From Wolbachia endosymbiont of Litomosoides sigmodontis (GTDB lineage Bacteria; Pseudomonadota; Alphaproteobacteria; Rickettsiales; Anaplasmataceae), in contig NZ_CP046577.1 of the NCBI RefSeq assembly GCF_013365435.1, forward strand, positions 360,001 through 392,000: a DNA stretch of 32,000 nucleotides, read 5' to 3'. Below the pieces are notes generated by a model that saw nothing but the letters and a program-made list of their open reading frames with translations, searched no databases and was not told the origin of the DNA. The position numbers were made by a program, and so were the translations under genes. Every line of letters begins with the position of its first letter. The first letter of the stretch is position 1. Shown in pieces: positions 31,078 through 32,000 of the stretch.

Positions 31078-32000
31078 ATGGAGCAATTCGAAAATTTTTA
31101 TATCACCACGCCAGTATATTACGTAAACGACAAGCCACACATTGGTCACGCATATACTTTCCTTATCTGTGATGTTACAGCCAGGTTTATGAAGCTAGCT
31201 GGAAAAAATGTTAAACTTACTACCGGTACAGACGAACACGGGCAAAAAATTGAAAAAGCAGCTAGAGCAAGGGGAATGCATCCAAAAGAATTTACAGATG
31301 AAGTAAGCGTTTTGTTTAGGGAATTAGCTGAGTTAATGAATTTTCAATATGATGATTTTATTCGCACCACAGAAGAACGTCACAAGAAAGCGGTTATAGC
31401 TTTATGGGATAGGCTTGAAAAAAGAGGGCAAATATATCTAGATTCCTATTCTGGTTGGTATTCAATCCGTGATGAGGCATTTTATCAGGGATCAGAGCTG
31501 ATAGATGGCAAAGCGCCAACAGGTGCTGAGGTTGAATGGGTAAAAGAAGAAAGTTACTTTTTTCGTCTGTCGAGTTGGCAAGATAAATTGCTAGAACTAT
31601 ATAAAAACCAGCCAAATTTTATCTTTCCTAAAAGTAGAAAAAATGAAGTAATATCGTTTGTAAAATCAGGACTGACTGACCTTTCAATTTCTCGCACCAG
31701 TTTTAACTGGGGAATAAAAGTGCCAGGAAATGACAGACACATAATCTATGTCTGGATAGATGCATTAACTAATTATCTTGCATCAATAGGTTTTCCTAAC
31801 ACGGAAAATGAAGAATATAAAAAATTTTGGGTAGAATCACAGTCTGTTATTCAAGTGGCCGACACTGAGGTCAAGAAGGAAATAAAGATTTCAACATCGC
31901 GCGCTGGGATGACATCAAATCTAGCTAATAACTCCTTTAACGTTCATGTAATTGGTAAAGACATATCACGCTTTCATGCTGTATATTGGCCAGCAATTCT
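31078..32000 (+). CDS. metG: methionyl-tRNA synthetase, N-terminal ~307 aa (continues past the window end)
   Basis: Not in the ORF track because it has no stop within the window. ATG 31078, then YITTPVYYVNDKPHIGHAYT (HIGH motif), TGTDEHGQKI, LSISRTSFNWGIKVP, VWIDALTNY and IGKDISRFHAVYWPA. Contains an in-frame insert at 31831-31940. Confidence 0.9.
   Translation, partial: MEQFENFYITTPVYYVNDKPHIGHAYTFLICDVTARFMKLAGKNVKLTTGTDEHGQKIEKAARARGMHPKEFTDEVSVLFRELAELMNFQYDDFIRTTEERHKKAVIALWDRLEKRGQIYLDSYSGWYSIRDEAFYQGSELIDGKAPTGAEVEWVKEESYFFRLSSWQDKLLELYKNQPNFIFPKSRKNEVISFVKSGLTDLSISRTSFNWGIKVPGNDRHIIYVWIDALTNYLASIGFPNTENEEYKKFWVESQSVIQVADTEVKKEIKISTSRAGMTSNLANNSFNVHVIGKDISRFHAVYWPAI
31831..31940 (+). 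repeat. In-frame ~100-nt mini-repeat element, copy in metG
   Basis: gttattcaagtggccgacactgaggtcaagaaggaaa...tcaacatcgcgcgctgggatgacatcaaatc. Encodes VESQSVIQVADTEVKKEIKISTSRAGMTSNLANNSF between KKFW and VHVIGKDISRFH, where MetRS enzymes normally have only a few residues. Homologous to the ccmF insert. Confidence 0.6.

Follow-up and report, generated by a model that had tools for sequence, protein, structure and literature searches.

Why does the methionyl-tRNA synthetase (MetRS) of a Wolbachia strain carry more than thirty extra residues within its conserved core, and where did they come from? The question is raised by metG, the last gene of a 32,000-nucleotide stretch from the Wolbachia endosymbiont of Litomosoides sigmodontis (assembly GCF_013365435.1, contig NZ_CP046577.1, positions 360,001 to 392,000 of the forward strand), hereafter the window, to which all coordinates refer unless another stretch is named. 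Our results suggested that the extra segment is very probably the fossil of a small Wolbachia repeat, palindromic and non-autonomous, whose copy survived in frame and is now a decayed passenger loop. Its sequence identifies the segment as an inverted dimer, now eroded, of a 26-27 nt hairpin repeat (GTCATCCCAGTGCTTGACACTGGGATC / ATYCCAGYGTCAMGCRCTGGRATGAC).

The 5' part of metG, the host gene, occupies 31078..32000 on the + strand, where 307 codons can be translated before the gene continues past the window end. The NCBIfam methionine--tRNA ligase models NF008900 (4.8e-119) and TIGR00398 (4.2e-88) match this fragment; because it is truncated, it scores below their full-length cut-offs. No stop interrupts these 307 codons, and the HIGH motif is preserved. 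The gene content of the window is Wolbachia-like (virB8-virD4 operon, dnaA, ccmF, yidC, dnaG), and the close homologues of its MetRS are all from Wolbachia. A preliminary description, made from the letters of the window, had reported in-frame extra residues between KKFW and NVHVIGKDISRFH, with the reading frame preserved. Both points held up, since metG is open through the insert and the additional residues were seen in protein alignments, in a structural match and at an empty site. They correspond to residues 252-287 (VESQSVIQVADTEVKKEIKISTSRAGMTSNLANNSF, nt 31831-31938), lie directly after KKFW (residues 248-251) and include catcgcgcgctggg, located at 31895-31908.

Using a 29-sequence alignment and a survey of 75 homologues, we measured the segment from WIDALTNY to HVIGKD: it spans 23 aa in non-Wolbachia alphaproteobacteria and 57 aa in the window, with most Wolbachia at 25-27 aa. 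Moreover, the best PDB match of the window MetRS, and its closest solved structure, the Brucella MetRS 4dlp (phmmer, 2.9e-97), is split at this point, query residues 5-251 corresponding to chain residues 25-275 and query residues 288-306 to chain residues 278-296, so that 36 residues stand where the structure has 2. Finally, the empty site was found at the DNA level in a supergroup B allele (L124), where TTTTGGACA is followed directly by AACTCC. The alignment of the filled with the empty site bounds an in-frame insertion of 96 nt at 31834..31929 (+ strand, codons 253-284, ESQSVIQVADTEVKKEIKISTSRAGMTSNLAN); note that its size becomes about 90 nt if the commoner 27-aa Wolbachia allele is taken as the reference. 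By these comparisons, the stretch of 36 or 32 residues reads as a true insertion, without counterpart in the outgroups, in most Wolbachia or in the Brucella enzyme. The segment had been placed in the second half of the Rossmann fold, and in the AlphaFold2 model it directly precedes VHVI, the beta-strand that opens that half. It had also been called atypically GC-rich; it is indeed enriched, but only modestly (0.40-0.42, versus 0.30-0.38 in the flanks).

The dispersal of the repeat was examined with a 26-nt pattern, ATYCCRGYGTCAMGCRCTRGRATGAC (18 fixed and 8 two-fold positions), derived from the second half of the insert in the related metG L001 and from partial copies in L003 and the window. 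The pattern was scanned against 596 Gb of species-representative genomes; here and below, family counts rest on the matches listed and are lower bounds. At least 120 stretches contain it, nearly all of them labelled as Wolbachia or as Rickettsiales metagenome-assembled genomes (MAGs), against a chance expectation that we estimate at about 0.07. The matches listed comprise 179 external cores in about a dozen Wolbachia genomes; together with the two cores from L001 and L002 this makes 181, of which 158 belong to four variants (e.g. ATCCCAGTGTCAAGCACTGGGATGAC and ATTCCAGCGTCACGCGCTGGAATGAC). The window itself holds 2-3 family copies in 32 kb. Contigs labelled Alphaproteobacteria HGM16780, proteobacterium RUG13061 and Candidatus Gracilibacteria MAG (L010, L030, L116, L045, L053) contain the exact pattern as well, perhaps through mis-binning or contamination, or because the repeat has a wider host range.

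The decisive test was a profile hidden Markov model (HMM) trained exclusively on 19 short-spacer dimers from other genomes, without any metG or ccmF copy among them. In nhmmer searches this profile matched the window at 31843-31917 (E 1.5e-9, model positions 4-82), within metG, and at 18218-18284 (E 3.2e-7, model positions 4-80), within ccmF. Since it matches both inserts end to end, the two belong to one repeat family, and the homology to the ccmF insert claimed in the preliminary description stands. Note that direct comparison does not reach this far: in register, 21 of 30 bases are equal (18221-18250 versus 31846-31875) and the peptide VIQVAD is common to both, and blastn, run with the metG insert on the window, found no significant match apart from the insert itself. 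Pairwise similarity is therefore insufficient to establish homology, and the family profile was needed. The degenerate motif that had been suggested for a genome-wide search found only the two copies from which it was taken, and was thus circular.

The host of the sister copy, the gene for heme lyase CcmF, lies at 17231..19231 on the + strand (NCBIfam TIGR00353, 1.3e-146), and in alignments the window CcmF is about 25-31 residues longer at the insert than non-Wolbachia CcmF. The dimer inside it (VIQVADIGIKGRNVRSSSGII, 18218..18284, + strand) is matched over the full model length, with module A at 18221-18250 and a badly eroded module B. The element is present at the same site in L040 and P0121, read there in another frame. 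In two divergent Wolbachia its reading frames differ, VIQVADIGI in the window (18218-18284) versus SFQCLTLES in L040 (4215-4260); the flanks carry compensating indels, and several database CcmF entries break there. A possible third copy, heavily eroded and intergenic, lies downstream of prmC at 15748..15820 (+ strand); its nhmmer match (15748-15805, E 0.11) is not significant alone, and a comparison by eye gives about 22 matches to module A in 30 bases. A module HMM made from 5 sequences gave no new match in either the window or L003.

The unit of the family is built as a hairpin: its stem, ATYCCAGYG/CRCTGGRAT, has 9 bp, its loop 5 nt (TCAAG or TCACG), and its tail reads GTC/GAC. Two stem pairs had been left free by the pattern, and among the matches listed both covary with few exceptions: pair 3-21 is C-G in 89 cores and T-A in 83, with 7 mismatches, and pair 8-16 is T-A in 128 and C-G in 44, also with 7 mismatches. 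These counts refer to sequences and not to events; each sub-family is a good palindrome, and many independent compensations are not implied. Inverted dimers are common, with spacers of 7-21 nt or of about 50-90 nt. An inverted partner within 120 nt was found for 63 cores, 27 of them with a spacer of 7-21 nt (mode 19) and the rest with one of 31-88 nt. Partners frequently come from separate sub-types, and in about 13 of the 19 dimers the two modules differ, so that pairing takes place within a module rather than between the two. The canonical short dimer folds as DNA at -19.6 kcal/mol (z -7.6).

Members of the family often reside in frame in genes: 62 of the 179 external cores lie inside open reading frames (ORFs) of at least 250 aa. 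The hosts identified by Pfam in other Wolbachia include DnaE, IleRS, LeuRS, PheT, PurL, PPDK, ClpB and UvrD/AddA-type helicases, as well as a PD-(D/E)XK nuclease (AddB-like), transketolase and aminopeptidase P (PepP). When the consensus dimer is translated in six frames, four are closed by stops, with TGA either in the loop or within GGATGAC, and the only stop-free frames are +1 (VIPVLDTGIQ...WIPASRAGMT) and its mirror. Both window copies, in metG and in ccmF, read in the open + frame. Copies in the open frame are those that would remain after selection had filtered insertions into essential genes.

In metG the parts of the dimer can be told apart. Module A, an eroded hairpin unit GTTATTCAAGTGGCCGACACTGAGGTC (consensus GTCATCCAAGTAGCTGACACTGGGATC), was placed at 31846..31872 (+ strand) by the nhmmer alignment to the external profile and reads VIQVADTEV; its 'QVAD' sub-type is also present in L007, L060, L048, L056 and L069. 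An A-rich 15-nt spacer, AAGAAGGAAATAAAG (31873..31887, +), joins it to module B and lies within the 7-21 nt of the external short-spacer dimers. Module B, the inverted hairpin unit ATTTCAACATCGCGCGCTGGGATGAC (consensus ATTCCAGCGTCACGCGCTGGAATGAC), reads ISTSRAGMT and was located at 31888..31913 (+) by the external profile and the pattern scan; GAAATACAG together with module B is found again in L020, with 94% identity over 36 nt. The make-up of the copy is therefore a QVAD-type module A, a 15-nt spacer and a GCG-type module B. The same combination of modules, in the same frame as in metG, is present in Wolbachia IleRS (L060: VIQVADTGIQTQIPASRAGMT) and ClpB (L069: VMQVADTGIQEKKWIPASRTGMT). The closest metG genes, L001 and L002 (GCA_902648435.1 and GCA_902648425.1, protein 89% identical), carry a better-preserved copy, GTTGTCCAAGTAGCTGACACTGAGGTCCAG-AAGGAAATACAG-ATTCCGGCGTCACGCGCTAGAATGAC.

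We propose that one dimer of this type, together with flanks of 12 and 16 nt, entered metG at the loop just ahead of the strand that opens the second Rossmann half. By landing in one of the two stop-free dimer frames, in what is presumably a surface loop, the insertion would have passed purifying selection in an essential single-copy gene. Both hairpins would have decayed since then, leaving a copy that is probably no longer structured or mobile, and the 32 residues would now form a probably disordered loop in an enzyme that is presumably active. Related alleles in other Wolbachia would be deletion or duplication derivatives of one insertion. As to how the repeat spreads, an HUH/Y1 transposase acting via single-stranded hairpins, or gene conversion or template switching, are conjectures.

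To which known system does this repeat correspond? Rickettsia palindromic elements (RPEs) were reportedly described by Ogata et al. in Science in 2000 and Genome Res in 2002, and the Wolbachia palindromic element (WPE) is said to go back to Ogata, Suhre and Claverie in 2005 (Trends Microbiol 13:253). The WPE is the Wolbachia counterpart of the RPEs. An RPE in R. conorii guanylate kinase reportedly behaves as a passive passenger, activity being equal after its excision (Abergel et al. 2006). Around the external cores, 22 of 55 peptides match the NCBIfam model TIGR02697 (WPE_wolbac), the best at 1.2e-24, and the LeuRS copy reaches 29.4 bits; positions 24-36 of the model, (EE)WIPVSSTGMT, are module B. 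As with the WPE, our family is a protein-coding palindromic Wolbachia repeat that resides in frame in genes, and the modules are common to both; unlike it, the short-spacer dimers align with TIGR02697 over its final 13 positions only, and the window peptides have no match to it. The full 36-aa model appears to represent a longer-spacer dimer (VIPVPRHWDPENL...NKNWIPVSSTGMT), as suggested by one peptide. In-frame inserts of the WPE kind have been described in addA, addB and priA (Badawi 2014, PMC4224334), and annotated WPE copies were counted in wVitA and wUni (Newton et al. 2016).

The second known system is that of the CGTC-tagged repetitive extragenic palindromes (REPs), defined by Di Nocera, De Gregorio and Rocco (Di Nocera 2013, BMC Genomics 14:522, PMC3733652), who assign the wRi and wMel elements to CGTC-4 and describe close dimers and clusters of them. 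Our family resembles CGTC-4 in being a short stem-loop, in its inverted dimers and clusters, in its presence in Wolbachia and in being sometimes intragenic. Moreover, supplement 4 of that paper reports an intragenic wRi CGTC-4 in ComEC that encodes VIPVLDTGI; this is our consensus module peptide, and the window peptides VIQVADTEV (metG) and VIQVADIGI (ccmF) are read in the same frame. The CGTC-4 identity thus rests on the supplement's peptide and not on a published family consensus. The window copies differ from CGTC-4 in their stems, which keep 5 Watson-Crick and 2 G-T pairs out of 9, and in end tags of TGTT/TGTC instead of the family's CGTC. According to PMC3733652, CGTC-4 and the WPE of wBm are unrelated, and the CGTC-type REPs have no transposase assigned to them; no search aimed at one was made here. 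Half-module arrays (...CACTGGGATGACA, every ~20-25 nt, with purine-rich linkers) follow many of the full hairpins in L015, L016, L017 and L022; they fit the 'large clusters' that Di Nocera 2013 noted in Wolbachia.

Two further comparisons help to place the family. The same source equates the CGTC-4 of R. conorii with RPE-4, with the peptides WIPWSNHGMT and VIPWLDHGI (PMC3733652), which parallel the Wolbachia peptides WIPVSSTGMT and VIPVLDTGI. The RPEs, RPE-4 in particular, behave alike: these small palindromes have invaded both coding and non-coding DNA in a Rickettsiales endosymbiont, R. felis having 728 RPEs, 85 of them within ORFs (PMC1166351); they differ in genus and consensus, and the classic RPE-1 is a single palindrome of ~100-150 bp and not a dimer of 26-nt hairpins. 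The enterobacterial REPs and bacterial interspersed mosaic elements (BIMEs) share imperfect hairpins of 20-40 nt, inverted pairs and variable spacers, whereas they are GTAG-tagged, almost always extragenic and served by a dedicated REP-associated tyrosine transposase (RAYT), in contrast to the CGTC REPs. We file the metG copy as an eroded hairpin repeat of the CGTC-4/WPE type, on the basis of the DNA profile and not of a protein model. This is what the preliminary description lacked: it did not recognise a described Wolbachia family, the inverted hairpin dimer, or the eroded state of the copies.

The history of the site was read from other Wolbachia. The outer edges of the insertion, which are not part of the repeat (GCAGAAYCA... 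and ...GAAYCTAGCTGAYAAC), are common to all filled metG alleles. Inside them, the filled alleles L003, L125, L126 and L127 lack module A or parts of module B: in L127 and L003 (supergroup A) module A is absent, L003 has also lost the 3' end of module B, and in L125 and L126 only the right part of module B is left. Measured against the empty site, the alleles of this locus form a decay series of 96, 57, 48 and 39 nt. wVitA and wInc carry a tandem B-B instead of A-B, as seen at the peptide level only (P0002, P0049). In a rough neighbour-joining (NJ) tree the filled alleles fall in two clusters, one a subset of supergroup A and the other, to which the window allele belongs, next to supergroup B. 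Empty alleles occur interspersed with these, and every basal lineage is empty. Because the filled alleles share their outer edges, we favour a single insertion, which would later have been modified by deletion, duplication, gene conversion and recombination between strains. Alternatively, the metG site could be an insertion hot spot that was hit independently in several lineages. This would account for the two separate clusters, for the two types of module B (GTG/TCAAG versus GCG/TCACG), for the tandem B-B of wVitA and wInc, and is paralleled by the ccmF element, found at one site yet in different frames in two strains. Independent events would hardly have left the same non-repeat edges in every filled allele, and we consider a hot spot unlikely, though of the alternatives it is the one that fares best.

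We next consider what the element is today. Each stem of the window copies retains the 5 Watson-Crick and 2 G-T pairs given above. The end tag is cTGTTAT in metG, where CGTC is lost, and cCGTCAT in ccmF, where it is kept, while external copies mostly have TGTC. RNA folding of the metG and ccmF regions gives z values of only about -1. The window copies are relics, and mobility or action as hairpins is unlikely. In the AlphaFold2 model, computed with the 29-sequence alignment, residues 254-286, which follow helix 245-250 and precede strand 289-292, have a predicted local confidence (pLDDT) below 50, against ~80-90 for most of the MetRS core and 58-71 for the first ~30 residues. These values fit a disordered surface loop, but low confidence does not by itself prove disorder. 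Compared with L001, DNA identity is 84% in the insert and 91% in the rest of metG. The non-synonymous divergence (dN) is 0.103 versus 0.044, and the ratio of non-synonymous to synonymous rates (omega) 0.22 versus 0.14. The insert thus appears to evolve faster than the rest of the gene, yet below the neutral rate.

Several observations weigh against the reading of the insert as a decayed repeat copy. Its edges, of 12 nt (GAATCACAGTCT) and 16 nt (ATCAAATCTAGCTAAT), match no other copy of the family. No target-site duplication is evident when the empty and filled metG sites are compared, TTTTGGRCA/AACTCC not being duplicated. The gene can be followed in the window to codon 307 only. Palindromic folding has been lost, with z values against shuffled sequences of -0.9 for metG, +0.6 for ccmF and +0.5 for L001. 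The metG and ccmF peptides of the window, and that of L001, gave no match to TIGR02697 at E<=10 (cut-off 27.55 bits), and what supports the CGTC-4/WPE-type assignment is the DNA profile, together with the orthologous copy in L001, which is better preserved. Finally, non-synonymous changes between the window and L001 (7, with 8 synonymous ones) are fewer than under strict neutrality, which in a sample of 15 changes leaves room for some constraint on the loop. A separate candidate, a miniature inverted-repeat transposable element (MITE) with terminal inverted repeats and a target-site duplication, was rejected for the metG insert, the comparison of empty and filled sites showing no direct repeat of the target flanks.

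The possible constraint bears on a further alternative, namely that the insert has been exapted: the loop would have gained a function in MetRS, for instance as an interaction surface, or a hairpin in the mRNA would regulate translation or stability. The omega of 0.22 is below 1, the insert has been kept in two lineages that are 9% diverged (the window and L001), and RNA-level roles of REPs are discussed by Di Nocera 2013 (PMC3733652). Set against this, the hairpin potential is gone in both lineages, related alleles freely delete or duplicate parts of the insert (lengths of 11, 14, 17, 18 and 30 aa), AlphaFold is not confident on the segment, and the element is present in many unrelated proteins. 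Exaptation therefore seems improbable to us. We give equally little credence to a broader proposal, in which the MetRS loop before the Rossmann half and the CcmF site would be arenas of ongoing turnover, with modules exchanged, inverted, duplicated and trimmed through gene conversion with hundreds of copies, yielding surface loops in essential enzymes that are polymorphic in length and sequence and partly shaped by selection, as the same omega might suggest. If this were true, such loops could matter for host interaction or strain incompatibility.

It is very unlikely that the insert marks the decay of a pseudogene or an assembly artefact. In L001 and L002 metG is frameshifted in an A7 run just before KMSKS (L001 1780-1822; L002 1013-1055), and the 3' half of the window gene lies beyond the window. 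However, the 307 codons of the window are open with HIGH intact, omega outside the insert is 0.14, and the same insert is present in independent assemblies. Downstream of the L001 frameshift, over more than 100 codons, the frame remains open with its sequence conserved, as a homopolymer error would give, so the A7 frameshift is probably such an assembly error rather than a sign of a pseudogene.

Still less probable is a lineage-specific loop that MetRS would have had since the ancestors of Wolbachia or the Rickettsiales, with a chance likeness to the stretch in ccmF. The insert region does vary in length among MetRS, most Wolbachia being 4 residues longer than the outgroups (27 versus 23). Nevertheless, most of the Wolbachia-like homologues surveyed, and all basal NJ lineages, are without the insert, an empty site exists at the DNA level, and the dispersed-repeat profile matches at E 1.5e-9. 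The ancestral loop is refuted by the profile match, the homologue survey and the empty site. The preliminary description had named a conserved Rickettsiales loop with no similarity elsewhere as the contrary case, and the survey and the external profile found the opposite. Finally, an intein, intron-like element or recoding signal that is removed from the mature enzyme would also appear as an in-frame insertion within a conserved enzyme core, but can practically be dismissed: intein identity is excluded by size (32 codons only, whereas an intein needs at least ~130 aa) and by the junctions (W-V/ESQS ... NLAN/NSF), which have no Cys, Ser or Thr at the N-terminal side and no His-Asn plus nucleophile at the C-terminal side, and the whole window gave 0 Rfam matches at gathering score.

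The phenomenon itself is known: selfish palindromic repeats are tolerated in frame in Rickettsiales housekeeping genes, and metG holds one more old copy. An odd loop of 32 residues in an aminoacyl-tRNA synthetase is explained in this way without a new function, and the locus raises no new biological question beyond those already posed by the Rickettsia RPEs and the Wolbachia WPEs. Its sole mildly novel angle is the series of decay and rearrangement at one site of an essential synthetase. The presence or absence of the metG insert, together with the decay series, is a possible strain marker and a natural experiment on the tolerance of a class I synthetase core. In practice, annotators and phylogeneticists should mask such segments, as was done for addA, addB and priA (Badawi 2014, PMC4224334).

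Other repeats are present in the window. An unrelated dispersed intergenic repeat, ~0.4-0.9 kb long and 68-90% identical between copies, occurs at least 6 times in both orientations, which is unusually dense for 32 kb: 1800-2712(+), 14301-14678(-), 15899-16723(-), 19264-19857(-), 21050-21662(+) and 26538-26983(+). Its copies bracket ccmF and a secF-like gene, and the small ORFs within it (e.g. 2455-2808 and 21311-21637) have no Pfam match. At the 3' end of virD4, a 66-nt tandem repeat of ~5-6 units (13820-14215) encodes acidic DDEDDKFEEDDGLKEEKYDDVF units.

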